Part shown: one piece after another, positions 7,294-51,089 of the stretch
How the letters are laid out: each line of letters opens with the position of its first letter
Numbering within the stretch: position 1 is the first letter of the stretch
Assembly: GCA_963674755.2 (NCBI GenBank)
Contig: CAXXVS010000003.1
Span: 1,280,001-1,344,000 of the forward strand
Length of the DNA stretch: 64,000 nt
From: Desulfobacterales bacterium
GTDB lineage: Bacteria; Desulfobacterota; Desulfobacteria; Desulfobacterales; UBA5852
Direction: 5' to 3'
Position numbers and translations under genes: made by a program
The notes under the pieces: generated by a model
Seen by the model: the letters and a program-made list of their open reading frames with translations, nothing else
What the model was told of the DNA's origin: nothing
The model's database searches: none

Positions 7294-7419
7294 GGGTGGG
7301 TTTGTGATTTCACCAATTTCGGCGTTGCGCGGCGTCGCGGTGTCGCTGCGGCGTACCGATGTACGCCTCACTCTCCACGACTTGCGCGCCTTGAACTTGG
7401 CGAAATCACAAACCCACCC
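7294..7419. repeat. Nested-hairpin intergenic element, copy A
   Basis: 23-bp outer IR with 1 mismatch; tcggcgtt ... gcggcgtac-cgat-gtacgcct ... cgccttga. Confidence 0.85.
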
Positions 7420-7535
7420 GGTTATATTGTAAAATTTGCTCTATGCGTTTACATCGGCCTGCGTCTTGTTCTCGGAGACGATCTCATCCATGGCAAAGCC
7501 CCCAAGAATGGATACGACTTCTTCATTTCGTCAAT

Positions 7536-8711
7536 TCAGTCGCTTGGTTTTGTTCCAAGCGACTCCTCAATGACCTTTTCAGGGATGCTTCCGGGGTAGG
7601 TTTGATCGCCTATCACGTAGGTCGGTGTTCCCCTCAATTTTAATTCATGGCCGGCGGCAATGTCTTTGAGGACCGCCGATTTGGCGTCCTCACTAGCCAT
7701 GCAGGCGCGCAGCGCTTCAGGATCTATGCCGATGGCCTCGGCCAGTTCTTCGGCAGTAACCGGATTTTTACGGCGGCCATTCGCATACAGATAGTCGTTG
7801 GCCTCCCAAAAACGCTTTTGTTCGCCGGCACAGTGGGCCATGACCGCATAGACGAACGAATACCGATGGCGCTTCAAAGGATAGTTCCGGTGGACAAGTC
7901 GGATTTGGTCCGGATGCCGGCTGACCAGCGCTCTGACCTTGTGGTGACCCCGGCTGCAATAGGGGCACTGGTAGTCACTGAACTCGGTGATCTCGAGAAC
8001 CGGTTGGCGGGCGCCGATCCAGTCAAACCCCTCGGCTGTTTTGCCAACCAGCAACCCTCCGGGACCGGTCGTGATGTTGGCCTCCCAGTAAGCGGGTAGG
8101 GTGACCCACACGATTCCCAACAGCGCCATAAAGCTCGCAAGATATAAAGAAGCCGTCAGCCTTTTGCCGGAAACGGCCTTGGTGTCCATACCAAATGCCT
8201 TAAACGGCCCGCATTTCAAGCGGCGCAGATCGAGGATCGTAAGGCCCAATAGCAGGCCGTTGATGACGTAGGTGGCCATGCACAGGAGGCACAGGGAGTG
8301 GATCTCCCGGTGGGAAATGAAAAACAGGACCGCGCTTACAAGAACGGAAACAAGGCTCAGCCAGAACAAAAACCCAAGGGGCCAGGTATGGGGCGGCTGT
8401 TTCCGGCGGGCAAGCCCCCACAGGCACAGGCCGCCCATGAACAGATAGCCGACGATACCCCACAGGGCCACGGGAAGGCCGGCAATAACCGCGTAGGGGC
8501 TTAGCGCAACCGTTTCGCAATTGAATTGCTCGTTCACGGCGCAAAGGGCGTGATAGGCGGGGTCGGTGTAGACCTTCACATGCAGCCGCAGCAGTTCGGC
8601 ACTGAAGCAGGCGCCTAGGACACAGAGCACCAAGAAAAGGATGCGCCACACAGGAAGCGGCCCGGATGTATCGGTAGAATGTCGGTTGGCGCTTAGCGGA
8701 TGAGGTGTCAT
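7536..8711 (-). CDS. Vitamin K epoxide reductase (VKOR)-DsbA fusion
   Basis: CAVNEQFNCETV loop cysteines, CLLC active site, TM helices; thioredoxin domain FSDYQCPYC and cis-Pro GTPT. Confidence 0.9.
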   Translation of the reverse strand: MTPHPLSANRHSTDTSGPLPVWRILFLVLCVLGACFSAELLRLHVKVYTDPAYHALCAVNEQFNCETVALSPYAVIAGLPVALWGIVGYLFMGGLCLWGLARRKQPPHTWPLGFLFWLSLVSVLVSAVLFFISHREIHSLCLLCMATYVINGLLLGLTILDLRRLKCGPFKAFGMDTKAVSGKRLTASLYLASFMALLGIVWVTLPAYWEANITTGPGGLLVGKTAEGFDWIGARQPVLEITEFSDYQCPYCSRGHHKVRALVSRHPDQIRLVHRNYPLKRHRYSFVYAVMAHCAGEQKRFWEANDYLYANGRRKNPVTAEELAEAIGIDPEALRACMASEDAKSAVLKDIAAGHELKLRGTPTYVIGDQTYPGSIPEKVIEESLGTKPSD

Positions 8712-8805
8712 GGAATAATTTTCCTGCATCGACTTTTGACGGGATGATAAAAGGAAAGGGGGAGGATGTCCAGCCGGAAAACTTGTCGGTGATGGGGTCC
8801 CAATA

Positions 8806-8837
8806 CAAAAGGCGGAGATCAAGCGCTCCGCCTTTTG
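8806..8837 (-). terminator. Intrinsic terminator after the acylase gene
   Basis: caaaaggcggag-atcaagcg-ctccgccttttg. Confidence 0.7.
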
Positions 8838-8863
8838 TTTCAGATCCGGTTATCGGATGCAAA

Positions 8864-11632
8864 TTATCGCTTTTTCCCGCCCTTTTCCCCGGTGAATAGG
8901 GGGAATTCCCGCGGAGTGAAATCGTCGAAGATCTCTTTCATGCTGAGGAAATTGTCATCGAAGATGGGCACACCGTATTCCAATGTAATGTTACCGGATT
9001 CACCTAGCGGAAACATGCTTTCGATGCGGATCGGTCCCTTACGACCGAACTCAACCACATGCGCGTAAGTTGAACGGGAAGCGAAGGGCGTGGTCCACTC
9101 AATAGGTGTCGCATTAATTTTTTCTAGATATGTATTCAGCAGGTCGTGCCTGTACTCGATGTTTCCACGAGGCACGTCGATGGGGATCGATCCCCCATAG
9201 GTAGCCATGACATTTTCAAAGGCCCTTATGACAATGGCTTCCAGAGTTTGGGGTGCGTTTTGGTTGCTGTTGCTGAACCAGTTGTAGGTGGTTTTAATGC
9301 CGTCGTCATCTTCATTCATGGCATGCAGGATCACATTGAAAAGCAATGTGTTGTTGCACGCCAGATATCCTCCCTCTCCGTCTCCCAACTCGTCATCGAA
9401 TGTCAGGTGGATGATTTCCTTTAGCCAGTCGTTCATCAGGACCCAACCCTGGGCGCGGGTGTCTCCATTGACCCAGTTGCCTTCCACGAAATGTCCATCA
9501 TCATTATTCCACTTTTCAAGGATTTCTAAAACTCCTGGGAAATCTTCATCGAGCTTGTCATCTTTGGCATATTGAATGAACTTATTCGCCACAAAGGCCC
9601 AGGGGTTGCCCCCGCCGTTAAAAGAATCTGTTGCGGCGATGTTGAGGGCCAGGTCTCGGATGTCCTCGAAGGTCAGGTCGTTGTTAGTGGTCAAATAATT
9701 ATAGATTACGTGGGCTCGTTGGAAGGGGCCGTAGATGTCGTTGTTGCTGTTAAAAGCATTAAAATAGGTGGGACTGGTCTTGTTGTTCCAGCCGGCGAAA
9801 AAGTCCCTTTTAGGATTTCGGGCGTGGGAGCGGGGCACGAGTTCATTGTCCACCCAATCTGTCACAGGCTCACCTTCAGTTGCATCCTGGGGTAGGAAAA
9901 AGAGGTAGCGCATCTTTGGGTCGTCCATCCCTTTACGCGCGGGATCACGGCCGGACATCCAGTAAGCGATATTGCCGTCCCGGTCGGCGTAGCAGAAATG
10001 CTGGCTGACGGCGATCTCTTCGATGGCCGTGCCGAAATCATTCATGCTTTCGGCACGGGCAAGGCCCAGGAAAGCTTTGACGACATTGAACTCATATCCC
10101 CAATGAGCATAGCGCCAGGAGATGAACGGATCAGTTTTTATGACCGGGCCATATTCTGTTCGGAATACGTTAAAAGTTTTCTTATCCATTTGGTAGGTTT
10201 TGAGGTTGATAACTTTTATTGTCTCTTCCCTGCCCTCATCTAGCGAGCCTCCTACAGTGTAGTCGGTGGTGTGTGCGTGGCCTACTTGCATAGACCAGGC
10301 ATGATGGGGGGTGCGCCCGATAATAATGCCCGGGATGCCGGGCACCGTCATGCCGGATATGTTCAGCCCGGCGGCTCGGATGGAACCCTCGCAGACGATG
10401 GAAGGCACTGAGAAACCCATCTGGGGGCCTGAGTAGATGATGGGGTTGCCCGAAGCGGTCTTCTTGCCGGACACCACCCAAGCGTAGCTTCCCATCTTGA
10501 CCTTGGCGTTGATCTTCTTTAGGTTTTCTTTGATTTTATCTATGCGTTTCGCAAACTCATTGCAGGCTTTTCCAAGCCCAGGGACAATCTTTGGGACTAT
10601 GTCTGTATCATCGGCATTTTCTATCGCTTCTTTGGTATCAACAATATAGGTCTGTGCTTCTGGATCGTTAGACCAGCGGAGATCTTTGAACATGGCCATA
10701 GCCTGATAGACGTCTTCGTCTGAAAAAGCGGTTAGATGCTCCAGCAAAGCGGCATTTTTCAGCTGAGCTTGGTCCAGAGCTTCGGGATCGAATTCGCGCT
10801 GGAGCAAGGCGCACCAAGCCAGGATATCCTCAACGGTCCACTCTGTCAGAACAGATTCCAGGGGTAGCTCCGATAATTGAAGAAATTCAAATTCGAATGG
10901 GAGAATGGTTGTATCTTCATAAATTTGCCATATTCGCCGGTTGATGCCGGCCGCATAACCCGCAATGATAGCCTTGCTTTCGTCATCCAAATCGGCAAAG
11001 CCTGCGCTCAGTTCATCATCGGAATAGCCTATGGTCCGCATGAAGACATCGCTTTTGAGCTGGCTCTCGCCGAAAATTTCCGCCAGCCGTCCCCGGGCCG
11101 TACGGCGGTAAAGCTCCATCTGCCAGAGGCGGTCGGTGGCGATGGCATAACCCATGGCCTCGAACGTATTGTATAGGCTGCTGTTGACCTCGAAGGTGCA
11201 GGCCGCCACGTCCACACGCTTTTTAGCACCGCGGACCTTGGCCCGCAGCCGGTTGAAGCGGGCTTTCTTGGAGCGGTATTTGTGCCTGCGGCCCTCGATG
11301 AACCACACGCCCTTGTCGTCCCGGCTGGTTTCGATGGTTTCAGAATAGGAGCGCACACCGTCGTCGGGGTCGATCACGGCCGTCATGGTGCTGCCCGTCA
11401 ATGTGAAGCGGTCGGTAATCTCTTTGCTGTTGAGCCAGGCCCGAAAGGTGGACGGATCGGCACCGTTTTTCAATTCCACTACGACCTCGACGGTATCCTG
11501 CAGGCAGGTCTGGCGTTTGGTCGGGGATTGGATGGTCAGTAGCTGGTGTTGCTTGGCCTCGGTCGTGGCGGTTTGGCCTGGCATGACCAACATGATCACG
11601 GCCAGTGCGGTGATCAGAAATCGTTTGTGCAT
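8864..11632 (-). CDS. Secreted penicillin acylase family Ntn-hydrolase with an extra N-terminal beta-rich domain
   Basis: Signal peptide; GYAIATDRLWQMELYRRTARGRLAEIFG; beta-chain start GSYAWVVSGKKTASGNPI; YADRDGNIAY; GWNNK. Confidence 0.88.
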   Translation of the reverse strand: MHKRFLITALAVIMLVMPGQTATTEAKQHQLLTIQSPTKRQTCLQDTVEVVVELKNGADPSTFRAWLNSKEITDRFTLTGSTMTAVIDPDDGVRSYSETIETSRDDKGVWFIEGRRHKYRSKKARFNRLRAKVRGAKKRVDVAACTFEVNSSLYNTFEAMGYAIATDRLWQMELYRRTARGRLAEIFGESQLKSDVFMRTIGYSDDELSAGFADLDDESKAIIAGYAAGINRRIWQIYEDTTILPFEFEFLQLSELPLESVLTEWTVEDILAWCALLQREFDPEALDQAQLKNAALLEHLTAFSDEDVYQAMAMFKDLRWSNDPEAQTYIVDTKEAIENADDTDIVPKIVPGLGKACNEFAKRIDKIKENLKKINAKVKMGSYAWVVSGKKTASGNPIIYSGPQMGFSVPSIVCEGSIRAAGLNISGMTVPGIPGIIIGRTPHHAWSMQVGHAHTTDYTVGGSLDEGREETIKVINLKTYQMDKKTFNVFRTEYGPVIKTDPFISWRYAHWGYEFNVVKAFLGLARAESMNDFGTAIEEIAVSQHFCYADRDGNIAYWMSGRDPARKGMDDPKMRYLFFLPQDATEGEPVTDWVDNELVPRSHARNPKRDFFAGWNNKTSPTYFNAFNSNNDIYGPFQRAHVIYNYLTTNNDLTFEDIRDLALNIAATDSFNGGGNPWAFVANKFIQYAKDDKLDEDFPGVLEILEKWNNDDGHFVEGNWVNGDTRAQGWVLMNDWLKEIIHLTFDDELGDGEGGYLACNNTLLFNVILHAMNEDDDGIKTTYNWFSNSNQNAPQTLEAIVIRAFENVMATYGGSIPIDVPRGNIEYRHDLLNTYLEKINATPIEWTTPFASRSTYAHVVEFGRKGPIRIESMFPLGESGNITLEYGVPIFDDNFLSMKEIFDDFTPREFPLFTGEKGGKKR

Positions 11633-12283
11633 GGTGTCCTCCTTTCGCGGGCAATCGATGTGTGGATTAACAGCGGGTTGATGGTTGCTTGAAAAAGATC
11701 GTGGTTGTCACGGGAAGGTCGTCTCCGGGATAAAGTCGGTCGGCGGTGGAAGGTGGAAACGCGACGGGCGACGGCGGGAGAGGTTTTGTCAAACCACAGC
11801 GCAAACCTGTCCGCATGGCCTGTTCAGGAGGTACCCCACCATCACTATGACTTTGTGCCTATACCTTGTGACGCGAGCTGCTTTCCCGATTGGGCCCCTG
11901 CGGCCCACCAGGTGGTTCCGGGAAGAGAGGGGTCCGGGAAACACCGTCACGGGAGGATCATGCATTTTATCTTTTGATGAATGAAAGGAAAACGAATGAA
12001 TGAGAATCACTCGCTGAAATCTATCTTTAAAGGAAACCGCCTGCGCGCGTCAACCCAAAATTTGCATCCGATAATCGTCCGGGAATACGCCTACGATCAG
12101 CCCTCGCGTAAGAACTAGGTGGTATTGGAAATCCTCAAAAATACAAAAACGTATTTCAATGATTTTTTTTCAACATAATTGTATTTATACGATTGTATTT
12201 TCTATTCCTGCATCTGGCGATAAAATCATAAATTAAGTTTAATATCAAATAGTTAAAAAATTTCTGGGGGTTTTCGGGCTGGA

Positions 12284-12298
12284 TGGCACGTCCCTTGC
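12284..12298 (+). promoter_or_regulatory. Sigma54 promoter of amtB
   Basis: TGGCACGTCCCTTGC matches TGGCAC-N5-TTGC; preceded by an AT-rich tract. Confidence 0.85.
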
Positions 12299-12413
12299 CA
12301 GTATGTCACTACCAAAAAACAAGCATGTCTCGGCCATCGCCGCAGAACGAGCAGGTCGGACTCAAAAATGATGATCAACCCTATAACCTGATGGAATGAG
12401 TGAGGAACAGATC

Positions 12414-13814
12414 ATGAAACGAATTTTGACAATGCTGATTTTTCTTCTATCTGTCGCATCGGTCTGCTGGGCGGGCGACGAGGTGCCGACGACCCTGTCG
12501 AACAAGGCCGCCATCGATCTCGTGCAGGTGCACGCCAACTTCCTGTGGACGCTGGTGGCCGCGGCCCTGGTCTTTTTCATGCAGGCCGGATTTGCCATGG
12601 TAGAGACCGGTTTTACCCGGGCCAAGAACGCCGTCAATATCATGATGAAAAACCTGATGGACTTTTCCATCGGCTCCATTGCTTTTTGGGCTATCGGTTT
12701 CGGCCTCATGTTCGGGGCCACCACCACCGGCTGGTTCGGGACGACGGGCTTTTTCCTGAGCGACTTCACGGGCGAAGGCACCGAATGGATCCTGGCGTTC
12801 TGGATGTTTCAAGTGGTGTTTTGTGCGACAGCCGCCACCATCGTCTCCGGCGCCATGGCCGAACGCACCAAATTTGTCGGGTATCTGTGCTACAGCGTGG
12901 TCCTGAGCGCCATTATCTATCCGATTTTCGGCAGTTGGGCCTGGGGCAGCCTGCTAAACGGCGATGGCTGGCTGGAAGGCCTGGGTTTCATCGATTTCGC
13001 CGGCTCCACCGTGGTGCATTCGGTAGGCGGCTGGGCCGCCCTGGCCGGCGCCATGGTATTGGGACCCCGCATCGGCAAATACACCAAAGACGGCAAGATC
13101 CGTCCGATCCTAGGCCACAACATGCCCCTGGCCGCTTTGGGGGTGTTCATTCTCTGGCTGGGCTGGTTCGGGTTCAATCCCGGTTCCACCACCACGGCGG
13201 ACAAGAGCATCGCCATGATCTTTGTGAACACCAACCTGGCGGCGGCGGCCGGCGCGATTCTGGCGATGGTCATCTCGTGGATGAAGTTCGGCAAGCCGGA
13301 AGTGGGCATGAGCCTCAACGGCGCTCTGGCGGGCCTGGTGGGCATCACGGCCGGCTGCGCCAATGTGACCCCCGGCAGTGCGATCATCATCGGGTCGGTG
13401 GCCGGTGTTATCGTGGTCTACTCGGTGGTGTTTTTTGACAAGATCAAGATCGACGACCCGGTGGGTGCCATTTCGGTGCATGGGGTCTGTGGTGCCTGGG
13501 GCACCCTGGGTGCCGGGATCTTCGATATGGCCGGTTTCTCCCTGAAGACGATCGGGGTGCAGCTGGTGGGCATCGGGGCCTGCTTCCTGTGGGTCTTCCC
13601 GCTGGCCTTCCTGATGTTCAAGCTGATCGACCTGACCATCGGCCTGCGCGTATCGCCTGAAGAAGAACTGGAAGGGCTCGATTGGGCCGAGCACGGCGGG
13701 ACCGCCTACCCGGACTTCGAGGTTTCCAGCTACACGACCAGCCCCGGAATTTCCGGCGGTCCCGGCGGTCCCAAACGCGCCCCGGTCGGCAAGCCGGTGC
13801 CGGAAATGAGTTAG
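12414..13814 (+). CDS. amtB: Ammonium transporter
   Basis: FFMQAGFAMVETG, ATIVSGAMAER, DFAGSTVVH, GWFGFNPGS, DDPVGAISVHG; start after GAGGA RBS. Confidence 0.97.
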   Translation: MKRILTMLIFLLSVASVCWAGDEVPTTLSNKAAIDLVQVHANFLWTLVAAALVFFMQAGFAMVETGFTRAKNAVNIMMKNLMDFSIGSIAFWAIGFGLMFGATTTGWFGTTGFFLSDFTGEGTEWILAFWMFQVVFCATAATIVSGAMAERTKFVGYLCYSVVLSAIIYPIFGSWAWGSLLNGDGWLEGLGFIDFAGSTVVHSVGGWAALAGAMVLGPRIGKYTKDGKIRPILGHNMPLAALGVFILWLGWFGFNPGSTTTADKSIAMIFVNTNLAAAAGAILAMVISWMKFGKPEVGMSLNGALAGLVGITAGCANVTPGSAIIIGSVAGVIVVYSVVFFDKIKIDDPVGAISVHGVCGAWGTLGAGIFDMAGFSLKTIGVQLVGIGACFLWVFPLAFLMFKLIDLTIGLRVSPEEELEGLDWAEHGGTAYPDFEVSSYTTSPGISGGPGGPKRAPVGKPVPEMS

Positions 13815-14180
13815 TACCTTAGTACGTCTAATGGATGACGCTCGCCAGCGTCTACGATGTCATGGCCGGCCGAAGCTCCTTGAACCCTCTCCCTCAACGG
13901 GGCTTCAGCCGGCTGACAACCAGCAGGAAGAGGTTGGTCTCCCAAATCGGTACCGGATACGGAGGTGCTCCGGCCGGCTGCTGGAACACCTGCCCGGATG
14001 CCGAGCCATAGTGTCCGCTAAATGGTCTGTTCCTCCCTACCGCCCAACCTCTTCCTGCCCCTCATTCGCGCGGCCCGGCGCATTTTTCAGCCACCCGTTG
14101 CCGCCCCCTTCTTCCCCCGGATGTCCCAACGGATTTCCCTGTCGGAAGATCCGCATCCGCCCGGCCGGGCCAAAGAGACG

Positions 14181-15438: not shown

Positions 15439-15476
15439 CAAGCACCCGGAGGGGCCTTCAGCCCCTCGGGTGCTTG
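15439..15476 (-). terminator. Hairpin at the end of the hdr-met operon
   Basis: caagcaccc-g-gagggg...cccctc-gggtgcttg. Confidence 0.6.
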
Positions 15477-16613: not shown

Positions 16614-16621
16614 GTCGCCTC

Positions 16622-35531: not shown

Positions 35532-37985
35532 TCACCCCAGGTTTTTTGCAAGAACCCTTCGGATCGCATCTGTCAGTCGATAGGCATTAATCGGTTTTAT
35601 GATCAACTCCGATATGCCCGTGTCGCGGGCCGCCCTTTCAATGGTTTCGCTAATAAATCCGGAGGTAAGAATCACCGGAATCGATATCCCGGCTTCTCTA
35701 AGCGCCTTCGCAATCTCCAGCCCGGTGATTTGCGGCATGGCATAGTCGGTAATCACGATGTCAAAGGCGAGCGGATGTTTTTTTAGGACCCTCAGTGCCG
35801 TCACGCCATCGGTAAAAGCGGTCACGCTGTAGCCGATATTGCTCAGGATCGACTGAATCACCGTGGCGATGGCTTTTTCATCGTCGATGACGGCAATCTT
35901 TTCGGTTCCCGGCTTTAGCAAGGGCACGATTTGGGATCCTCCGGCCACCTCGACATCGCTGACGGGGAAAAAGATATCGAAACGCGTGCCCTTCCCGACA
36001 GTGCTGCGCGCCGTAATGATCCCACCGATTTTCTTGACAATGCCGTGGACGACGGAAAGCCCCAAGCCGGTGCCTTCTCCTTGCGTTTTAGTTGTAAAAA
36101 ACGGCAGAAATATTTGGTCAAGGACCTCCGGGGCGATACCCGCCCCCGTATCGGACACTCCCAACCGAAGGTGCTTGCCCTGTTTGACATCGGGATGCGT
36201 CTTGGTGAATGTTTCATCAAGGAAAACATCGTCAAGGGCCAATGTGATGGTACCGCGGCTTTCCCCGATGGCATGCACGGCATTCGTGAAGAGGTTCATG
36301 ACGACTTGATGGATCTGCGTCGGCTCGGCCAAAATAGCGGCATCGCTGGTTAGGTCCGCTTCGATATGGATCGTGGCCGGTATGGAAGCACGCAGCAGTT
36401 TCAGGGCTTCTTTTAGAACCGGCTTGACCGAGATGGGTCTGAGCTCGACTTCGGTCTGTCGGCTGAACGTCAGGATTTGGTTCACGAGCTCGCGCGCCCT
36501 TTCCGAAGCACGAATGATCTCCCGCATGTAATATTCAGTTTCCGGATCGTTGCCTTCCGCCATCAACGACAGCTCGGCATAGCCGAATATCCCGCTCAAG
36601 ATATTGTTGAAGTCATGGGCGATCCCCCCGGCCAGGGTGCCGATGGCTTCTAACTTCTGTGCCTGCTGCAACCGTTTTTCAGACATCAATTCGCTGCTGA
36701 TATCCCGCCCGATTTCAAGATAGCCGCCGATCGCCCCGCTGGCGTCCCGCAAAGGCACGAACATGACATCGAGGGTAACGGTGCCGTTGTCGTCTCTTTT
36801 GAGTTGCATCCGGCCTGACCATGGAATCCCGGATTCAAGCGCTTCCCAAATTTCTTCGGCGGAAATGTTGCCGGCCCCGCTGAGGTCGGGCTCCGTTCCA
36901 ATGAGTCTCTCCGGTTTCGACCCGGCGATTTTGCCAAACGCCGGGTTAGCAAAAACGATCCGGCGATCGACACCGATTTGCAGAATCATTTCGGTCGAAT
37001 GCTGCGTCACTTGATTCACCATCTCCATCACTTCCTGAACGGGCGTACTGATTCGGTTCGTATAGATGTTGATGGTTGCGACGATGACAAGGCAGAAAAC
37101 CGCCCCGCAGACGACAATCAAGGACAGGACTTTCGTCACCGGAGACATGACCTCATATTGGTCCTGCGAAAAAACAACCGTCCAGCCGGTGAGGGCCACA
37201 TCGGTTAATGCGACGATCTTTTCCGATCCCTTGAACCGATAGGATGTGGCGCCGGTCGCCCGGGCCGCCACTAATTTTTTGATCTCCTCCGTGCCGGGTA
37301 GATCCAGGAGACGCAATTTGAAATTATAGTCCTTGTTCGGGTGCATCAGAACGAGGCCGTCCGAATCAATGAGAAAGGTGAATCCGGTGCTTCCGACGCT
37401 TCCATGGGCAAGGTTATTGACGACAAAATCGCTGTTGAAAGGGATGCCGACGACTCCGTAAAAGGCCTCCTTTTCTCGGATGGGGGCGCAGACAACAATG
37501 ATTGCCTCATTTAGTGTGGCAATTCCTTTAGATAACAGGGGGCCTCCCACATTGGCCTGGCCCTGTTTGGCTTTGAGAAAATAATCCCGGTCCGATAGGT
37601 CGAGACCGATTTGTTGGTGGGAATGGGCATTTGCCCTGGTAATACCGTTTTGGTCCAGCAGGAAGATTGTGAAATAGTCGCTGCCGATGCCCTGGTAGAC
37701 GGACTCCAGTTCTTTTTGGGCGGCTGTGTAATCGCCGTTCCTGGAGGCCGCAATGACATCCGGATCGGCCGCTATGCTACGTGCAAGCTCGATTTTCTGT
37801 GTGAGGAGCGCCCCGATGTGATCGGCGACATCCTCGACATTATGCACCGCTCTATCCGCAGTGATCGCCACAAGGGATTCGGACAGCTGCAAATAGACGA
37901 TCAGCCCGATGCAGAAAAAGGGAATCAGGACCGCGGTGATCCCCCCCACTATCATCCGGGTTTTCAAGGTCTTGCTGTTGATCAT
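35532..37985 (-). CDS. Hybrid histidine kinase (Cache-PAS-HisKA-HATPase-REC), paralog 1
   Basis: GIAHDFNN, NLFTNA, DTGAG, PFFTTK, GTGLGL, REC (DDE, ITD, KP). Confidence 0.93.
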   Translation of the reverse strand: MINSKTLKTRMIVGGITAVLIPFFCIGLIVYLQLSESLVAITADRAVHNVEDVADHIGALLTQKIELARSIAADPDVIAASRNGDYTAAQKELESVYQGIGSDYFTIFLLDQNGITRANAHSHQQIGLDLSDRDYFLKAKQGQANVGGPLLSKGIATLNEAIIVVCAPIREKEAFYGVVGIPFNSDFVVNNLAHGSVGSTGFTFLIDSDGLVLMHPNKDYNFKLRLLDLPGTEEIKKLVAARATGATSYRFKGSEKIVALTDVALTGWTVVFSQDQYEVMSPVTKVLSLIVVCGAVFCLVIVATINIYTNRISTPVQEVMEMVNQVTQHSTEMILQIGVDRRIVFANPAFGKIAGSKPERLIGTEPDLSGAGNISAEEIWEALESGIPWSGRMQLKRDDNGTVTLDVMFVPLRDASGAIGGYLEIGRDISSELMSEKRLQQAQKLEAIGTLAGGIAHDFNNILSGIFGYAELSLMAEGNDPETEYYMREIIRASERARELVNQILTFSRQTEVELRPISVKPVLKEALKLLRASIPATIHIEADLTSDAAILAEPTQIHQVVMNLFTNAVHAIGESRGTITLALDDVFLDETFTKTHPDVKQGKHLRLGVSDTGAGIAPEVLDQIFLPFFTTKTQGEGTGLGLSVVHGIVKKIGGIITARSTVGKGTRFDIFFPVSDVEVAGGSQIVPLLKPGTEKIAVIDDEKAIATVIQSILSNIGYSVTAFTDGVTALRVLKKHPLAFDIVITDYAMPQITGLEIAKALREAGISIPVILTSGFISETIERAARDTGISELIIKPINAYRLTDAIRRVLAKNLG

Positions 37986-38054
37986 GGTTGCTCCGGGATT
38001 AAACCAGGTTATCGGCAGCGCCTAGCGCGTATTGGGTTCATATCGGTTGGGCCT

Positions 38055-38955: not shown

Positions 38956-39622
38956 GCAGAAAGGTCGTGCTGAAGTGACCCTGATGATGCCGTTATCCAT
39001 GATTTGCGAGGATTCAATCAGGAATAGGATTCTCGCATACCATGCCCTTTTCCCCTTGACAACCAAAGGTCGGCCTACGTTATATGCGGATATAGACATC
39101 ACAAAGACAGGGACGTACGCACAGTCCTAAAGACTCTACCACGTTCGAACAGCCGATCTTGCCGCGGGATTTCAATTCGATCATTATAGTCCATCTGCGT
39201 GATCGAAGTCTATTGGGTAGCGTAGTCCTGACAACCCGCGGGGCCCTCCCGATGGAGTAAAGCGGACTGGAACAGCCGGCGTTTGCTCCGATACCCCCCC
39301 CCTCGGCAACCAAGCCTCGGCCGACAGCGCCGAGGGGGTCTGCGACCTCAACGACTTGGCTGTGGCTCCGATCCGATTGAAGGAAGAAGGACATATCCAC
39401 AGCGTTGTTCTTTCGGATTTCGCCCCCTATTTCGGCGACGGCCTTCATTCTGGATCACCGGTCCCCAATGCCAAAGGGGCTGGCCGGCCCCAGACCGATT
39501 CGTGGACGGCGCGGCGGTGCTCGTAGGCGCGTTGGATAATTACGAAAACCGGACGCATGACCGATATGAGGCGTACGCGTGATAGATGCCGCCGATAACC
39601 CGGTTGCAGCCCCGGAGCGACC

Positions 39623-42076
39623 ATGATCAACAGCAAAACCTTAAAAACGCGAATGTTGGTGGGAGGGATCGCTGCGGTCCTGATCCCCTTTTTCATTATC
39701 GGTCTGATCGTCTATGGGCAGCTTTCCAAATCCCTGTTGGCGTTGACCATGGAAAGAGCGGTCCACCATGTGGAGGATGCGGCTGAACGCATCGAGACCG
39801 TTCTCAAACAAAAAATCGAATTGGCCCGCAGCATTGCAGCCGATCCGGATATCATCGCGGCCTCCAGAAACGGCGCCTATGCGACAGCCCAAAAAGAGCT
39901 GGAATCCATTTATCAAGGTATCGGCAGAGATTATTTCACGATTTTCCTGCTGGACCAAAACGGTATCGCCCGGGCGGATGCCCGTTTCCCCCGGCAAATC
40001 GGTACGGATCTGTCGGATCGCGACTATTTTTTGAAGGCTAAGCAGGGCCGGGCCAATGTGGGGGGGCCTTTGCCGGCCCGGGGCAGCGCCACACCGGGCG
40101 CGTCGGTCATCATTGTCAGCGCTCCCATCCTGGATAAAGGCCGTTTTTATGGCATGGTCGGCATTCCTTTCAATAATGATTTTGTCGTCAATAGCCTTGC
40201 AAAGGGAGAATTCGGGACGACCGGTTTTACCTTTTTAATCAATGCGGAAGGGGTTGTCCTCATGCATCCGCAGGAGGCCTATAATTTTAAATTGCGCTTT
40301 TTGGACCAACCCGGCACGGAGAGCATCAAAAGGTTGGCGGAAGCCAAAACGACAGGGGCCACTTCCTATCGGATCAACAGTTTGGAAAAGATTGCCGGGC
40401 TGGCTCATGTGGCGGCTACCGGCTGGACGGTTGTTTTTTCCCAGGACCGGCAAGAAGCCATGGCACCAATGACGAAAATCCTGTCCCTCATTGTCATCTG
40501 CGCCGTGGCTTTCTGCATCGTTATCATCGTTGCCATCAATATTTATACGAACCGAATCAGCACGCCTGTCCAGGAAGTCATGGAGGTGGTGCATCAGGTC
40601 ACGCAGCATTCGGCTGAAATGATTCTGCAAATGGGCGTCGATCGCCGGATCGTTTCCACCAACCCGGCGTTTGAGGAAGTTACCGGTTTGAAAGCGGAAC
40701 GGATCATCGGCACGGAGCCCGACCTCAGCGGCGCCCTGAATGCCTCTGCCGACCAGATTTGGGAAGCGCTGGAATCCGGAATTCCATGGTCGGGTCGCCT
40801 GCGGTTTCAAAAGAACGCCGACCTCAACCTTACCCTCGATGTCATGTTCGTGCCCTTGCGGGACAGTAACGGAGCAATCGGCGGTTACCTTGAGATCGGA
40901 CGGGACATCACCGACGAGCTTATGGTTGAAAAAAGATTGCAACAGGCTCAAAAAATGGAAGCCATCGGCACCCTGGCCGGTGGCATCGCCCATGATTTCA
41001 ACAATATCTTGAGCGGAATCTTAGGGTATGCCGAGCTGGCTTTGATGGAAACTACAAACAATCCTGAGACCGAGACTTATATGCGGGAGGTCATCCGCGC
41101 CTCGGAAAGGGCGCGCGCGTTGGTCAACCAAATACTGACTTTCAGCCGGCAGACCGAGGTCAACCTCAGGCCCATTTCGGTTAAACCGATTTTAAAGGAA
41201 GCCCTGAAACTGCTGCGGGCTTCTTTGCCGGCTACGGTTGCCATCAAGGCGAACCTCACCAGTGATGCGGTCATAATGGCCGAACCGACACAGATCCATC
41301 AGATCATTATGAATCTGTTTACGAATGCTGTTCATGCCATCGCTGACAGGTGCGGAACCATCACTTTATGGGCGGAAGATTTTATGGTGGATGAAGAATT
41401 CGCCCAGACCCATCCCGGTATCAGACCGGGAAACCACCTTCGGCTGGCGGTGGCCGATACGGGCGGCGGTATCGCACCACACCTGCAGGACCAGATTTTC
41501 TTGCCGTTCTTTACCACCAAAAGCCAGGGCGAAGGCACCGGTTTAGGACTTTCGGTTGTCCATGGCATCATCAGCAAAATTGGCGGCATTATTACGGTGA
41601 GCAGCAGGGAGGGGCAGGGCACACGCTTCGATATTGTCATCCCGGTCTGCGAGTCCGGTGATGCCGGAGAGGGACCCAACACGTTTTGCTTAACGCCGGG
41701 AAACGCCAGCATTGCCGTTATTGATGATGAAGAAACCATTGCCGCCGTCATTCGCGCTATTTTGAGTAATGTCGGCTACCGCGTGACGGCTTTTACAGAT
41801 GGTATGGCAGCATTAAAGGCCCTAAGGAGCGATCCGGAAGCATTTGACGTCGTCATCACCGATTATGCCATGCCGCAAACCACCGGTCTGGAAATTGCGA
41901 AGGCTCTCAAAGAAAGCGGGATCATCATCCCGATGATTATCATTACCGGATATGTGAATGAAACGATCGAAAAAGCGGCCCGCGCCACCGGTATAGCGGA
42001 GTTGATCATAAAACCGATCAATGCTTATCAGTTGACGGATGCGATTCAGCGTGTCCTAGCCAAAGCAATCGTGTGA
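39623..42076 (+). CDS. Hybrid histidine kinase, paralog 2
   Basis: Same length (817 aa), same start MINSKTLKTRM and same motifs as paralog 1. Confidence 0.93.
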   Translation: MINSKTLKTRMLVGGIAAVLIPFFIIGLIVYGQLSKSLLALTMERAVHHVEDAAERIETVLKQKIELARSIAADPDIIAASRNGAYATAQKELESIYQGIGRDYFTIFLLDQNGIARADARFPRQIGTDLSDRDYFLKAKQGRANVGGPLPARGSATPGASVIIVSAPILDKGRFYGMVGIPFNNDFVVNSLAKGEFGTTGFTFLINAEGVVLMHPQEAYNFKLRFLDQPGTESIKRLAEAKTTGATSYRINSLEKIAGLAHVAATGWTVVFSQDRQEAMAPMTKILSLIVICAVAFCIVIIVAINIYTNRISTPVQEVMEVVHQVTQHSAEMILQMGVDRRIVSTNPAFEEVTGLKAERIIGTEPDLSGALNASADQIWEALESGIPWSGRLRFQKNADLNLTLDVMFVPLRDSNGAIGGYLEIGRDITDELMVEKRLQQAQKMEAIGTLAGGIAHDFNNILSGILGYAELALMETTNNPETETYMREVIRASERARALVNQILTFSRQTEVNLRPISVKPILKEALKLLRASLPATVAIKANLTSDAVIMAEPTQIHQIIMNLFTNAVHAIADRCGTITLWAEDFMVDEEFAQTHPGIRPGNHLRLAVADTGGGIAPHLQDQIFLPFFTTKSQGEGTGLGLSVVHGIISKIGGIITVSSREGQGTRFDIVIPVCESGDAGEGPNTFCLTPGNASIAVIDDEETIAAVIRAILSNVGYRVTAFTDGMAALKALRSDPEAFDVVITDYAMPQTTGLEIAKALKESGIIIPMIIITGYVNETIEKAARATGIAELIIKPINAYQLTDAIQRVLAKAIV

Positions 42077-42234: not shown

Positions 42235-42407
42235 AGACGGTTTCGTAAAAAGTCCGATATCGGCGTTACGCGTATCTTTCGTCACTGCGGCGTACGCAAA
42301 GTACACGCCCTTCGGGCCCCGCGACAGCGGTATTCCTCAAGATTCGCAAGCCTTGACCTCGAACAGTTTACGAAACCGTCTAAACAGTGACTTTTTACGA
42401 GTCCATC
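42235..42407. repeat. Nested-hairpin element, copy B, with an extra outer arm
   Basis: agacggtttcgtaaa / tttacgaaaccgtct IR; tcggcgtt, gcggcgtac-gcaaa-gtac, gccttga; extra arm gactttttacgagtccatc. Confidence 0.85.
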
Positions 42408-44471: not shown

Positions 44472-44520
44472 GGCGGATGATCCCATTCGCTTCATTCGGC
44501 CTTGCCTGAGGCTTCCTTTT

Positions 44521-45312: not shown

Positions 45313-45553
45313 CCGGCCGACCCTATCGAAATTTGGCAGGCATGGCAATGGTCACGGCCGGTCTGGTGGCGTCCCTTTCAGAGCTGCCGCGACATTCACC
45401 TGACAGCCGGCTGTCCTCTATTTCAACTTGCGGGAATGATGGTGTTCAGCCCGCATCCGACGGCAATACCTAACCTCGTCTTCCTGATCTTCTGATGAAT
45501 TCCCAAAGTTGATCCATGGGTTTTTCAAATTCAATTTAGGCGAACGCCAGAAT

Positions 45554-45565
45554 TTGTCTTGACAA
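45554..45565. promoter_or_regulatory. Probable GntR(HutC)-type operator overlapping a TTGACA -35 box
   Basis: Palindrome TTGTC-TT-GACAA about 50 bp upstream of gntR. Confidence 0.6.
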
Positions 45566-45616
45566 CTTAACCAATTTACCTTAATTTGCCCCCTAATTTT
45601 ATAGGTGCCATGTCGT

Positions 45617-46348
45617 ATGCTGAATAATCAATCGCCCATACCCCTCTACCACCAACTGGCCGACCTCCTGACCGCCCGGATTCGGGGAGGCGATTATGCC
45701 GTGGGCGATCGGATTCCTTCCGAGCACCAGCTGGCGGAGGCTTACGGCATCGGGCGGCCTACCGTCCGGCAGGCCATCGATATGCTGGTGCGCCGCCACA
45801 TGTTGGTGCGCCGGCGGGGTTCGGGCACCTATGTGGCCGCGGCCGAACACGAGCTCGACTTGTTTTCCCTGGCCGGCACCACATCGGCCTTTCAGCGCCA
45901 GGGCCTGACGGTGGATACCCGGGTGCGCTGCAAGCTCAAAAGGACGGCCGTCAAACATGACAGCGACAACCCCTTCAACGGAGGAGAGGCCTTTTTCTTC
46001 TCCCGGCGCAGTTTGGTGGACGACGTCCCGGTGCTGATCGAAGACCTCTACCTGCACCCGGACCTCTTCAACGGCATCGACCGGATCGATCTGGAAGGCC
46101 GTTCCATCGCCGATATCGCGGCGGAGCGCTACTATATGCGGCCCACCCGCGGGCGGCAGAATTTTCGAATCGGCTATCTGCAGGGCGCCCGGGCCAAGGA
46201 TCTCGGGGTTTCGTCAACCACACCGATTCTGGCCGTCAAGCGCTACCTGCATTTCCCCCAGGCGGACAACGCCATCTACGCCGAGTTGTTCTGCCGTACG
46301 GATCAATTTGTTTTTTCCCAGACCATCGGAGGACTGGCGGATGAATAG
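45617..46348 (+). CDS. GntR family regulator (HutC/UTRA subfamily)
   Basis: PLYHQL, IPSEHQLAEAYGIGRPTVRQAI, RRGSGTYV. Confidence 0.92.
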   Translation: MLNNQSPIPLYHQLADLLTARIRGGDYAVGDRIPSEHQLAEAYGIGRPTVRQAIDMLVRRHMLVRRRGSGTYVAAAEHELDLFSLAGTTSAFQRQGLTVDTRVRCKLKRTAVKHDSDNPFNGGEAFFFSRRSLVDDVPVLIEDLYLHPDLFNGIDRIDLEGRSIADIAAERYYMRPTRGRQNFRIGYLQGARAKDLGVSSTTPILAVKRYLHFPQADNAIYAELFCRTDQFVFSQTIGGLADE

Positions 46349-47576
46349 AAATGGCTATTATGCAGACTTCGGCGGGGCTTTCCTGCCGGAGATCCTGGTG
46401 TCAACGTTCGATGAATTGACCGCGGCCTTCGCCAAGGCCAAGGCGGACCCGGCCTTCTGGGAGGAATACGCGGCTTTGATGGGATCCTATTCCTGCCGGC
46501 CGACGCCCCTGACCTTTGCCGAAAACCTGACCCGTCAGCTGGGCGGGGCCCGGATTTATGTCAAGCGCGAGGATCTCAACCACACCGGAGCCCACAAGGC
46601 CAACAACGTCATGGGCCAGGGGTTGCTGGTCAAACGCATGGGCAAGACCCGCGTGATCGCGGAAACCGGGGCCGGCCAGCATGGGGTCGCCACGGCCACC
46701 ATGGCGGCGCGCTTCGGCTTCGACTGCACCATCTATATGGGCGAAGTGGACGTGGAACGCCAACGCCCCAACGTCTTCTGGATGGAGCAGCTGGGGGCCA
46801 CGGTCGTCCCGGTCAAGGACGGTACGCGTATTCTAAAGGATGCCATCAATGAGGCGTTCCGCGACTGGGTTTCCAACATGGACAATACCCACTACGTTTT
46901 TGGGACGGCCTGCGGACCCCACCCTTACCCGGAGATGGTGGCCTGGTTTCAGTCCATCATCGGGCGGGAGGCCCGGGAACAAGTGCTGGCCTGTGAAAAA
47001 CGGCTGCCCTCCCGGATCTACGCCTGCGTGGGGGGCGGCTCCAACGCCATGGGGATCTTCAGCGGGTTCCTGGACGATCCCGACGTGGCGCTCGTGGGCG
47101 TCGAAGCCGGTGGGCGTGGTTTGGATTCCGGTGCCCACGCTTCCCGCCTGTGCTCCGACGATGCATCCGTAGGCGTTGCCCAGGGCTATAAGACCTATTT
47201 TCTCCAGAACGTCGAAGGCCAGATGAAGGAGACCCACAGCATCGCGGCGGGGCTGGACTACGTCGGGGTTTCCCCGATTCTCTCCCATTTAAAGGAAACC
47301 GGCCGGGTCCGCTTTGCGGTGGCCACGGACGGGGAGGTGGTGGAGGCCATGCGCCTGGCCATCCGCAAGGAGGGACTGATCCCGGCCCTGGAATCGGCCC
47401 ATGCCTTTGTACAGGCCTTCAAGGACGCCCCCACCATGGGTCCCGAAGAGGTCATCATCATCAACCAGTCAGGCCGCGGCGACAAGGATATCTTCACGGT
47501 GGCGGATGCTTTCCAGGATCCGGGCTGGCGTGAGTTCATCATTAAGAAAGCGGCGCAGTACCAGGGGATGGCGTAG
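46341..47576 (+). CDS. trpB: Tryptophan synthase beta subunit
   Basis: KREDLNHTGAHK, AETGAGQHG, CVGGGSN, HSIAAGLDY, PALESAHA, SGRGDKD. Confidence 0.96.
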   Translation: MNRNGYYADFGGAFLPEILVSTFDELTAAFAKAKADPAFWEEYAALMGSYSCRPTPLTFAENLTRQLGGARIYVKREDLNHTGAHKANNVMGQGLLVKRMGKTRVIAETGAGQHGVATATMAARFGFDCTIYMGEVDVERQRPNVFWMEQLGATVVPVKDGTRILKDAINEAFRDWVSNMDNTHYVFGTACGPHPYPEMVAWFQSIIGREAREQVLACEKRLPSRIYACVGGGSNAMGIFSGFLDDPDVALVGVEAGGRGLDSGAHASRLCSDDASVGVAQGYKTYFLQNVEGQMKETHSIAAGLDYVGVSPILSHLKETGRVRFAVATDGEVVEAMRLAIRKEGLIPALESAHAFVQAFKDAPTMGPEEVIIINQSGRGDKDIFTVADAFQDPGWREFIIKKAAQYQGMA

Positions 47577-47674
47577 GTTCTACAGCCTCTGGGAATGCCT
47601 CGGAGAGGTTCTGCCAATCCGGGGTGCTTTTCATCGAAGGTTTCTTCCTTAAATCTCATTTTTCCGAGGCGATC

Positions 47675-48436
47675 ATGCTTGAAGCATATTTAAAGCAGCG
47701 GCGGCAAGAGAAGGATATTCTCCTGATGACCCATATCGTGGCGGGCTACCCGAGCTGGGAGGCCTGCACCGCGATGGTGGACGCCATGGTGGCGGCCGGC
47801 GTGGATCTGATGGAAATGCAAATTCCCTTTTCGGAGCCCATGGCCGACGGCCCCGTGATCCTCAAGGCCAATCAGGATGCCCTGGAGCGCGGGGTGACGG
47901 TGGCCCGCTGTTTGGCATTCGGCCGGGAAATGGCCCGGCGCCACAAAATCCCGTTTCTCTACATGACCTATTACAATATTCTCTTCCGCCACGGTGTCGA
48001 CGAGTTCGTGGCCGAGATGGCCGACAGCGGCATCCAAGGCGCCATCGTGCCGGATCTGCCACCCGAGGAGGGCGAAGATTATCTTCAGGCCATGAACCGT
48101 CACAGGCGCCATCCGATATTCATTTTTTCCCCCACGACTTCGGATGAACGTCTTCACTATCTGGCGTCCTTTGCGAAGGGCTTTGTCTACTGTGTGGCCC
48201 GCAAGGGCGTCACCGGTATGGATACACGGTTTACGGATGAACTAGGCGCCTATCTGGCCCGCTGCCGCCGCGTCACCGATCTCCCCTTAGCCCTTGGTTT
48301 CGGGGTCAAAGACAAGACGGATGTGGCGTTTCTCAAGGGCAAGGCCGACATCGCGGTGATCGGCACCCAGACCCTGCGCCTGGTGGATAGTCAGGGGGTC
48401 GGCGCCGTGGGGGATTTTATCCGGGAATTGCAGTAA
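47675..48436 (+). CDS. trpA: Tryptophan synthase alpha subunit
   Basis: EMQIPFSEPMADGPVI, MTYYN, IVPDLPPEE, GVTG, LGFGV. Confidence 0.95.
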   Translation: MLEAYLKQRRQEKDILLMTHIVAGYPSWEACTAMVDAMVAAGVDLMEMQIPFSEPMADGPVILKANQDALERGVTVARCLAFGREMARRHKIPFLYMTYYNILFRHGVDEFVAEMADSGIQGAIVPDLPPEEGEDYLQAMNRHRRHPIFIFSPTTSDERLHYLASFAKGFVYCVARKGVTGMDTRFTDELGAYLARCRRVTDLPLALGFGVKDKTDVAFLKGKADIAVIGTQTLRLVDSQGVGAVGDFIRELQ

Positions 48437-48591
48437 CGATCGCACGCTACAGGTGCGGCAAGATCATAAGGCGTCGCGGGGCTGAGGAGGCAAGGGCCCG
48501 AGAAAAGATCGACATTGCAGCTGGATCATATTCACAAGAAGCGCGCCGCGGCATAGGGACCGGCGGTGCTCTTCTAAAAAGGAGGACGACA

Positions 48592-49764
48592 ATGGGTAGA
48601 CGGCTTCTGATAGTGCTGTGTGCGGTGGCGGTGTTGGCCGCAGTGCCGGTCCAGGCGGTGGAACCGGTTAAAATCGGCATGATAACGACCTTGTCCACCA
48701 AGGCCGGTTATCTGGGGGAAGACATCCGGGACGGTTTTCAGCTCGCCATCCAGCAGGAAGACGGCAAGCTGGGCGGTGTGCCGGTGGACCTGCTCGTGGA
48801 AGACGACGGCCGCAAACCGGGAAAAGCCAAGCAGATCGCCGAGCGTTTCATGCAGCGGGACAAGGTGAAGCTCATGACCGGCATCGTATTTTCCAACGTG
48901 GCCATCGCCGTGGTGCCCAAAGTGGTGCAAGATGGCGTGATCTATATCAGCGCCAATGCCGGACCGTCCCTGTTGGCGGGCAAGGGCTGCCACCCGAATT
49001 ACTTCAATGTGGCCTACCAGAACGACAATATCGACGAGGTGGTGGGCAAGTATGTGACCGAATCCGGCTTCAAAAACGTTTATCTGTTGGCGCCCAACTA
49101 TCCGGCCGGCAAGGATCATCTGACCGGCTTCAAGCGGTACTACGAAGGCGCCATCGCGGGGGAGGTCTACACCAAGCTGGGTCAATCGGACTATGCCGCC
49201 GAAATCGCCGCCCTGCGGGCCGCCAAGCCCGATGCGGTTTACTTTTTTCTGCCCGGCGGGATGGGCATCAATTTCATCAAACAATACGCCCAGGCCGGGC
49301 TGAGTCAGGATATCCCGGTTTTCGGACCGGCCTTTTCCTTTGACGAACGCCTGCTCCAGGCCGTCAAGGATTCGGCTCTGGGGGTCAAAAACGGATCCCA
49401 GTGGAGCCACGACCTGGACAATCCGGCCAACCGGCAATTCGTGGCGGCCTTCCGCAAGGCCTACGGCCGGACGCCTACCCTTTACGCCAGCCAGGGGTAT
49501 GATGCCGCCCGGCTCATCGGAAGCGCCCTCAAAGCGGTGGGCGGCGACGTGTCCAAGACGGACGCCCTGCGTCAGGCCATCCGCCTGGCCGACTTTGAGA
49601 GTGTGCGCGGCAAGTTCGCCTTCTCCGCCAACCAGCACCCGGTGCAGGACCTCTACATCCGCGAGGTGGTCAAAGCGCCCGACGGCACTTACACCAACAA
49701 GACCTTGAAGGCGGTCTTCACGGACCACAGCAATGTGTACGTCGAAGAGTGCAAAATGAAATAG
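48592..49764 (+). CDS. LIV-type ABC transporter substrate-binding protein
   Basis: Signal peptide; KIGMITTLS, EDDGRKP, PNYPAGKD, YASQGYDAA. Confidence 0.9.
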   Translation: MGRRLLIVLCAVAVLAAVPVQAVEPVKIGMITTLSTKAGYLGEDIRDGFQLAIQQEDGKLGGVPVDLLVEDDGRKPGKAKQIAERFMQRDKVKLMTGIVFSNVAIAVVPKVVQDGVIYISANAGPSLLAGKGCHPNYFNVAYQNDNIDEVVGKYVTESGFKNVYLLAPNYPAGKDHLTGFKRYYEGAIAGEVYTKLGQSDYAAEIAALRAAKPDAVYFFLPGGMGINFIKQYAQAGLSQDIPVFGPAFSFDERLLQAVKDSALGVKNGSQWSHDLDNPANRQFVAAFRKAYGRTPTLYASQGYDAARLIGSALKAVGGDVSKTDALRQAIRLADFESVRGKFAFSANQHPVQDLYIREVVKAPDGTYTNKTLKAVFTDHSNVYVEECKMK

Positions 49765-49910
49765 TGCCTTTTCAGAAGGGGCATCTGGCAGCCCAGGCCG
49801 GCGTTCTCGCGTTTTCGCAATCCTCGACGTAGCCTGCTACGCCTGCGGTCTGCGAAAACGCTGCGGCCTTGGCCTGAACCACCATCTACCGCTTCTGAAA
49901 AGGCGCACTA
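49762..49910. repeat. Nested-hairpin element, copy D (divergent)
   Basis: tagtgccttttcagaag / cttctgaaaaggcgcacta; ccggcgtt, gcgttttcgca/tgcgaaaacgc, cgacgtag-cctg-ctacgcct, gccttgg. Confidence 0.75.
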
Positions 49911-50066
49911 TACTGGCTGACCAGAACTGAAAATCCTCATTTCTGGAGCGAACACAGCGATCCATTGTCATCGGTTGTTTAAGGAGAAATTCTCCAACCT
50001 AAACCATAGGACGTCCGACCCACTATCGGGGCGGACAGTCTGCTGGTATGCCGCATTGCAGGTTTC

Positions 50067-50978
50067 ATGCTGCTTTTTATCGAACAATTGTTAAACGGGC
50101 TCCAGTTGGGGATCATGCTGTTTTTGATGTCCACCGGGTTGACCCTGGTGTTCGGGATCATGCAGGTGATCAATCTGGCCCACGGCTCGTTTTACATGAT
50201 CGGGGCCTATGTGGGGGCCACGGTTGCGGCGCGAACGGGCTCTTTTCTTCTGGGGCTCCTGGCCGCGCTGCCGGCGGCCGCCCTGGCGGGGATGCTGGTG
50301 GAGACGACCGTGCTGCGGCGCCTTTATAAAAAGGACCACCTGGACCAGGTGCTGGCCACCTTTGGCCTGATCATGTTTTTCAACGAATTGACGCGCATCA
50401 TCTGGGGCCGTCAGCCCTTGTTCATGGATGTGCCCGCCTGGCTGGCGGGCAGCATCGAACTCATCCCGGGAGTGCCGTATCCCAGCTATCGGTTGGCCGT
50501 GATTGCGGTGGGCATCCTGGTGGGGGTGCTGCTCTACCTGCTCTTTACCCGCACCCGCATCGGCATGCAGATCCGGGCCGGGGCCAGCAACCGGGAGATG
50601 GCCGGCGCCCTGGGGGTGAACATCAAACTCCTGTATACGCTTGTTTTCGGTCTGGGAACCCTGCTGGCCGGACTGGCCGGCGTGATGGCGGGTCCCATCC
50701 TGGCGGTGGAGGCCGGCATGGGGGAAAGTGTTTTGATCCTGACCTTCGTGGTGATCGTCATCGGCGGGATCGGCTCCATTCGCGGCGCCCTGGTGGGGGC
50801 CCTCCTGGTGGGTATGGTGGACACCCTGGGACGGGCCTTCCTGCCCGCTCTGCTGCGGCTGTTTCTCTCCCCGGCCTATGCTGACGGGGCGGCCGCGTCT
50901 CTGGCGTCCATGTCGGTCTACCTGCTGATGGCGGGGATCCTGGTATGGCGCCCCAAAGGCCTCCTGCCGGCTTCGTGA
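50067..50978 (+). CDS. LIV-type ABC permease (LivH-like)
   Basis: GLTLVFGIMQVINLAHG, GMQIRA, VIGGIGSIRG. Confidence 0.92.
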   Translation: MLLFIEQLLNGLQLGIMLFLMSTGLTLVFGIMQVINLAHGSFYMIGAYVGATVAARTGSFLLGLLAALPAAALAGMLVETTVLRRLYKKDHLDQVLATFGLIMFFNELTRIIWGRQPLFMDVPAWLAGSIELIPGVPYPSYRLAVIAVGILVGVLLYLLFTRTRIGMQIRAGASNREMAGALGVNIKLLYTLVFGLGTLLAGLAGVMAGPILAVEAGMGESVLILTFVVIVIGGIGSIRGALVGALLVGMVDTLGRAFLPALLRLFLSPAYADGAAASLASMSVYLLMAGILVWRPKGLLPAS

Positions 50979-51089
50979 GATGACCAATATCGGCGTGGTG
51001 CGGCGTTCCTCGTCAGTGCGGCGTACCTGATGTACGCCTTCCTCCTCGGAACTTGCACGCCTTGATCTTGGTCATCTCACGAAGCCGGC
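50966..51089. repeat. Nested-hairpin element, copy C
   Basis: Perfect 22-bp IR gccggcttcgtgagatgaccaa; tcggcgtg, gcggcgtac-ctgat-gtacgcct, cgccttga. Confidence 0.88.

Follow-up and report, generated by a model that had tools for sequence, protein, structure and literature searches.

A dispersed family of gene-less repeats with insertion-sequence-type ends and a shared one-strand hairpin core in a Desulfobacterales genome

What kind of element keeps its interior and changes its ends? The question is raised by a 64,000-nt stretch of Desulfobacterales bacterium DNA (assembly GCA_963674755.2, contig CAXXVS010000003.1, positions 1,280,001 to 1,344,000), which as a whole is called the window. An initial annotation, made from the letters alone, had pointed to four hairpin copies at 7294-7419, 42235-42381, 49762-49910 and 50966-51089, and all four are present, each able to form a long hairpin on either strand. 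What was observed is real and extends further than was reported there. We conclude that the copies belong to a set resembling a superfamily of miniature transposable elements with inverted repeats (MITEs), a known kind of element, whose members share a hairpin core that folds better on one strand. Our main reading, to which we give a probability of about 0.7, is that they are gene-less elements with ends of insertion sequence (IS) type, which would be moved in trans by DDE transposases and whose central hairpin would survive by acting in transcripts.

The source genome (G000; 6.7 Mb, 58% GC) contains 116 matches to a strict pattern of the apical hairpin, compared with 0 in 3 Mb of order-5 Markov sequence. 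With nhmmer profiles of three subfamilies only (C, E and D), 333 matches were found and condensed into 252 loci, while the reversed genome gave 0, which bears out the idea of a dispersed family with extra copies genome-wide; further subfamilies are not fully counted in these numbers. The window copies at 7294, 42235 and 50966 belong to subfamily D and that at 49764 to subfamily C, followed by a remnant of subfamily E. The outer arms had been thought to differ freely in sequence, and this did not hold genome-wide, where they form a few conserved end types. Because the arms form conserved IS-type ends, the idea that they are inverted copies of the target was ruled out in general, with the copy at 50966 as a local exception.

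The ends of subfamilies C and E equal the terminal repeat of an ISNCY element. Among 45 IS5-type loci, one (L351) begins with GTGTCCATCCATAAAT, identical to the C/E terminus, and has TAGGTA on both flanks; four others (L352, L358, L362, L364) have related ends. Against NF033593 (NCBIfam, ISNCY family transposase; cut-off 325), which presumably corresponds to the ISDol1 group of ISfinder, the L351 protein scores 485 bits, and a protein 60% identical to it from the sister genome G004 scores 445. An exact 6-bp duplication of a TANNTA-type target borders 10 of 56 C/E copies (permuted mean 0.68, maximum 4), and 19 of 56 when one mismatch is allowed (3.4 permuted); a 4-bp register (11 of 55) was given up for the 6-bp one. 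Insertion thus duplicates its target in subfamily C, and would do so in D and E. About 2.3 of 6 Mb of the sister species G004 was covered by an empty-site comparison, in which 16 of 41 and 16 of 42 orthologous sites with a C-type copy in one genome were empty in the other. In the cleanest pair (L317:14245-14431, flanks 96-98% alike), TACTTA stands once in the empty allele and twice in the filled one; in read and contig mapping with four runs, no clean empty joint was found among the matches listed. Given IS-matching ends, target duplication and empty sites in the sister species, subfamily C/E consists of MITEs, which on these sequence grounds were very probably mobilised by DDE transposases.

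The termini of subfamily D are similar to those of a 1.9-kb IS1182-like element, which has four copies in the genome, and to those of its relatives. No target duplication was found for D (0 of 23), so that it is MITE-like with less certainty, and movement by DDE transposases is here probable, judging from the ends. In other phyla, the same apex stands in other end types; several of these elements are about 182 bp long and duplicate TTA/TAA, and several end in CTAG.

What is common to the subfamilies lies inside. The apex and the outer CGGCGT...GCCTTG motif described for the window were both found in the copies, with one misplacement: the GTAG/CTAC apex assigned to the fourth copy is in the third (49762-49910). 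The apex is indeed shared and is not invariant, since compensated variants occur (AAATAG/CTATTC, 8; AAATAC/GTATTC, 6; GCATAC/GTATGC, 5); it accepts such swaps and the internal loop is kept. Covariation was also found as claimed: in the D-type fold 90.7% of 869 cells are paired and 28 of 46 pairs have changed on both sides, values from 19 related sequences and a structure written by hand from the same alignment, so that kinship inflates the counts. None of 500 shuffles was as high, and slid controls were 28-44% paired. A cross-phylum MAFFT alignment of poor quality yielded only 5 pairs in RNAalifold.

The fold is conserved on one strand. The minus-type strand is the more stable one in 114 of 117 full genome copies, in 85 of 90 outside loci and in all four window copies, which upholds the claim of a conserved fold and places the better fold on the strand opposite to the one first described. 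The strand difference in folding energy is -12.6 kcal/mol with RNA parameters vs -4.8 otherwise. Mismatches in the terminal arms are G-T on the stable strand in 133 cases vs 25 on the reverse for subfamily C, and 30 vs 3 for D.

This core is separate from the ends. It lies inside none of 75 IS loci (at one locus a D copy adjoins the IS), and D-type ends surround unrelated hairpin cargo in at least 6 places. At orthologous sites the subfamily sometimes differs between species, and at three D loci arms and stems have changed together, far beyond the flanks. We conclude from these comparisons that the interior is no fragment of the transposons in question, and that the nested hairpin sits within several end types. 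Nested insertion at the sites of old copies, and recombination of one copy with another, would give cores their new ends. The unrelated cargo is of a GTCA-type palindromic kind, as at C1:852183 of the source genome (L433) and in L434-L438; in genome G008, a hairpin with GTCA-type cargo (L052) occupies the site of the window copy at 50966.

A role of the fold in RNA is suggested by where the copies sit. Among 117 copies of the source genome, the left terminus is where a long open frame stops in 45, and the right terminus in 4; the counts in G004 are 30 vs 2 of 59. Both C/E ends offer a stop equally, and therefore the polarity of C/E is no sequence artefact. With called open reading frames, the excess is inverted beyond 50 nt (10 vs 35), partly because convergent pairs count on both sides. 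Since TA and the first G of the element make TAG, a copy can land on a stop codon with the stop preserved. The fold would matter as RNA. Directly behind a stop codon, the mRNA nearly always has the weaker-folding strand, so that the element would adjust how stable the operon transcript is or how it is processed, an effect reported for the enterobacterial repetitive intergenic consensus (ERIC) in Yersinia. On this positional evidence, an RNA-level role of the core, most likely in mRNA, is slightly favoured.

The family extends far beyond the source genome. Of 41 genomes searched, 26 have the apex, among them 12 of 12 of the same genus, where it occurs in 8-88 copies per genome. Scanning species genomes gave at least 119 stretches, of which 80 were listed; the apex was fixed by the search pattern and the surrounding hairpin was not, and a long hairpin surrounds the apex in most of these loci. 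By record title, the 80 include Desulfobacterales, Geobacteraceae, Myxococcales, Acidobacteriota, Bacillota, Cloacimonadota, Planctomycetota and Spirochaetaceae; matches that share the end type carry the labels Desulfosarcina and Desulfobacterales. Besides, 30 viral loci match the patterns, mostly as real copies in phage-like contigs. In related phage-like contigs a D copy stands upstream or downstream of the same large gene (L016, L021 and L026 vs L033 and L035), and copies thus entered these phages more than once.

Several observations concern the make-up of copies in the source genome. Further subfamilies have other apex stems and ends with the same internal loop (C3:2698936, C1:329356, C3:478535, C2:34069). 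Small secondary inserts inside copies are recurrent. An IS21-type element with two genes is inserted in a subfamily C apex (C2:1572998-1575215), and about 14 other copies have a short remnant-like insert in the apex. There are also tandem arrays whose repeated unit is without the first 15-25 nt of the left end, for instance arrays of 4-6 units at C2:1908270-1908817, C2:2492311-2492900, C3:729705-730416, C3:711354-712192 and C1:873260-874037, with a near-identical spacer, decay at one end and the left terminal arm missing from each repeat.

We also compared the core with ERIC. Copies were fetched with an ERIC-PCR primer and with the apex of the matches to it, and we take them to be ERIC from the primer, their length and their hosts; their relatives lie on enterobacterial plasmids. 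A covariance model of subfamily D (R1) found 8 of 17 ERIC-type loci at 20-33 bits, at full length and on one strand, similar to its 27 bits for subfamily C. In the other direction, the top three window matches of an ERIC model (R2) were the copies at 7294 (17.9 bits, E 0.012), 50966 (16.4 bits, E 0.037) and 49764. Over 62 kb, all 10 matches of R2 were family members and none of 13 control hairpins matched; R2 was built from an alignment (A4) containing one ERIC row (L432) in reverse orientation. Alignment A3 replaced A2, with six rows dropped, three of them E-type, and E-free realignments were used. A profile score in the family/ERIC comparison was 30.8 vs 16.9±2.9, and z did not exceed 1.6 when one ERIC-type copy was used for pairwise comparison. 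The matching of the core with ERIC-type repeats by covariance models both ways has moderate support, and common ancestry of the two would be somewhat more probable than not.

A number of results weigh against this account. The matching ISNCY transposase is present in G004 and was not found in the source genome by tblastn with five such transposases as queries, although a MITE that no longer moves need not have one; C/E is therefore idle now or uses another enzyme, and an IS5 element with the same target, present three times, is a possible alternative. Most empty-site junctions are blurred by about 10% divergence, and E copies were empty at 0 of 5 and 0 of 10 orthologous sites. Subfamily D, to which three of the four window copies belong, lacks the duplication and is mostly shared with G004 (empty at only 3 of 16 and 2 of 21 sites), its empty/filled pairs carry extra tails, and the IS1182-like protein is below its family cut-off (135 vs 270 bits). 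Arm mismatches of subfamily E (8:12) run opposite to the strand bias. As to position, G004 shares some sites with the source genome, so its stop-codon counts are not independent, and a loose cross-phylum stop test was weak (28 vs 17 of 61). For ERIC, one perfect hairpin that is unrelated reached 26.6 bits with model R1, and sequence-only hidden Markov models gave no ERIC cross-matches. Finally, there is a replication-strand bias: among 159 strong loci, with replichores from GC skew, the weaker-folding strand is the leading-strand sequence in 113 and the reverse in 46 (p ~1e-7). Convergent pairs show the bias as well (30:9), which suggests an effect at the level of DNA.

This bias leads to the best surviving alternative, in which the MITEs keep their core as a DNA structure, a single-strand hairpin or cruciform that joins the two ends of an element of 125-180 bp or binds a host protein and so raises the copying rate, and the stop-codon polarity is purifying selection against a harmful RNA fold. 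The strand bias also holds among copies with intact duplications (15:4), length and fold are near-constant inside different ends, and a selfish element that keeps its core across phyla would need a benefit of its own. However, the D-type ends with unrelated cargo indicate that the core is not needed for such shells, the strand energy gap is larger with RNA parameters, and DDE transposases act on double-stranded ends. We consider this alternative unlikely.

Less probable still is a core that serves as REP-like (repetitive extragenic palindromic) single-stranded DNA substrate of an HUH enzyme (Y1 or REP-associated tyrosine transposase, RAYT) or of an Ssn-type nuclease, which would move or exchange cores, perhaps mainly in subfamily D. 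A substrate of the attC/REP type was the initial annotation's own suggestion, and what we found in its place are DDE insertion-sequence ends and, for C/E, the 6-bp duplication. Its other alternative, a structured RNA, would be the most probable role of the core. For the single-stranded substrate speak an AA-type mismatch beside a GGC/GCC stem and a GTAG near the foot of C, like E. coli REP as given in the available text of PMC8266576, together with the missing duplications of D and the tandem arrays that restart inside the left end. Replacement of the core in place belongs here as well: 16 compensated double changes, of which 13 fall in three D loci, were counted in 504 pairs, where about 4 double changes would be expected. 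The expected enzymes, on the other hand, do not accompany the copies. The 13 Y1 genes in the genome are all at least 2.6 kb from any copy, none of 20 RAYT-like loci from relatives carries one, and across 41 genomes, of which some are incomplete, copy number is uncorrelated with the number of RAYT-like genes (rho 0.04). Neighbouring genes in the 80 listed scan loci, from many phyla, showed no recurrent family: apart from spurious frames lying across the element, the families were scattered, none of them in more than 4 loci. The apex varies, and the GTAG that is invariant at the REP stem foot is in the C consensus only and absent from D and E. As to integrons, the copies are dispersed between ordinary genes in all four orientation contexts, unlike an attC arrangement, in a comparison that included no integrase search. 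Two candidate partners were rejected: a GIY-YIG nuclease (as for the Ssn/SRM hairpins of PMC11893778), since the nearest copy is at least 3 kb from each of five GIY-YIG genes, and the Y1 gene of the window (2421-3428), which has inverted ends of its own and no copy within 4.8 kb. This gene is Y1 (HUH) transposase-like with a C-terminal DnaA-type helix-turn-helix, below the RAYT cut-off; its short inverted ends lie at about 2367-2382 and 3436-3451, and it has several paralogs in the genome.

That the copies are independently transcribed small regulatory RNAs, as PMC2700814 proposes in its available text for a Geobacter family, would agree with the one-strand fold and the wobble bias and is very improbable in view of presence/absence at orthologous sites, target duplications, transposon ends, about 250 divergent copies and no Rfam match.

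Within the window, all copies lie on the minus strand by their better fold. The first (A, 7294..7419) has a subfamily D core in locus-specific arms with 18 bp of perfect match, and the second (B, 42235..42381; longest perfect match 15 bp) has D consensus ends like those of the IS1182-like element of the same genome and an insert of about 22 nt adjoining the apex. Copy B scores 59.9 bits with model R1 from outside its training set, and copy A was inside that set. The third (C, 49764..49908; 13 bp for the hairpin at 49762) is of subfamily C and has terminal repeats of ISNCY type (GTGCC...GCAC). The binding-protein gene upstream (48592-49764) owes the last letter of its TAG stop to the first G of this copy, where an intact target duplication is no longer present. 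Beside it lies a fifth fragment (49918..49954, minus strand), the remnant right end of a subfamily E copy (E 6.5e-4); at this site three of eight relatives have a whole E copy and the other five a C-type copy or nothing. The fourth (D, 50966..51089; subfamily D, 22 bp) covers with its left arm the last codons and TGA stop (50976-50978) of a permease gene (50067-50978) and has a right arm complementary to that stretch; plasmids gave no match to this copy. Rfam had 0 matches in the window at gathering score. Elsewhere in the window, two inverted genes for 817-aa hybrid histidine kinases (35563-38047 and 39560-42045) are 76% alike over 2.5 kb.

As mobile DNA the family is ordinary; the shared core and its polarity are the surprising part. 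At about 250 intergenic sites in a genome of sulfate-reducer type, many on operon stop codons, it may shape transcript levels. The view that it has no named family is only partly true: Rfam has none, but the core resembles ERIC, and the C-type apex has been described in Geobacter (PMC2700814, available text). A literature search found no description of ends, partner or ERIC link, and subscription papers and supplements, including the Geobacter alignment, may differ; the available portions of PMC11602168, PMC3733652, PMC2996986 and PMC11893778 do not describe the family.

Among known systems, trans-mobilised MITEs such as RUP with IS630-Spn1 (available text of PMC2229807) are also short, non-coding and intergenic, with IS-matching repeats, a target duplication and a long stem-loop. 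The partner here differs, being an ISNCY element of NF033593 (6-bp TANNTA duplication) or an IS1182-like element, and the interior is not partner-derived and is common to several end types and phyla. Gmet_R1 of Geobacter metallireducens (Aklujkar 2009, PMC2700814) comprises 24 intergenic elements, predicted as short RNAs, with similar sequences noted in other Geobacter and in Desulfotalea; its central palindrome equals the C-type apex, and the available text gives no ends, duplication, transposase, other subfamilies or ERIC link. The group-2 REP/BIME (bacterial interspersed mosaic element) of E. coli, substrate of TnpA-REP, likewise has a strand-specific hairpin with a conserved purine mismatch (PMC8266576, in the part available), and GTAG lies near the foot of C; our family is four times longer, has IS ends and a duplication, showed no REPtron, and is without GTAG in D and E.

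The closest comparison is with ERIC, an enterobacterial MITE with orientation-dependent effects on mRNA and unproven mobilisation, according to the available text of PMC2229807, PMC3184786 and PMC2759123. Such reviews describe its movement as unshown and its hosts as enterobacterial, and here an ERIC-like core stands in the ends of a nameable, clonable autonomous partner, so that movement can be tested separately from what the core does. A tentative extension, which we hold to be possible at most, is that ERIC represents a single branch of an ancient, cross-phylum module of structured RNA, which would hitch-hike in the ends of whichever IS5-like transposase is available, swap ends by nested insertion or conversion, and settle on stop codons in fixed orientation to control ribosome-coupled processing of operon mRNA; if true, it would supply both the missing mode of movement and the missing ancestry of ERIC-type repeats. 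The likeness lies in the length (125-127 bp for subfamily D, an imperfect palindrome, and about 127 bp for ERIC), in the one-strand fold of 16 of 16 ERIC-type copies, in mid-stem motifs that match at equal distance from the apex and in the reciprocal one-strand covariance-model matches. The apex sequence and the hosts are different, and the family has IS-type ends of 15-20 bp with a 6-bp duplication, whereas ERIC has 7-bp ends with TA. With IS-type ends, a 6-bp duplication and no TA ends, short terminal repeat or TA duplication of the ERIC kind, the family is thus a possible relative of ERIC and not a member.

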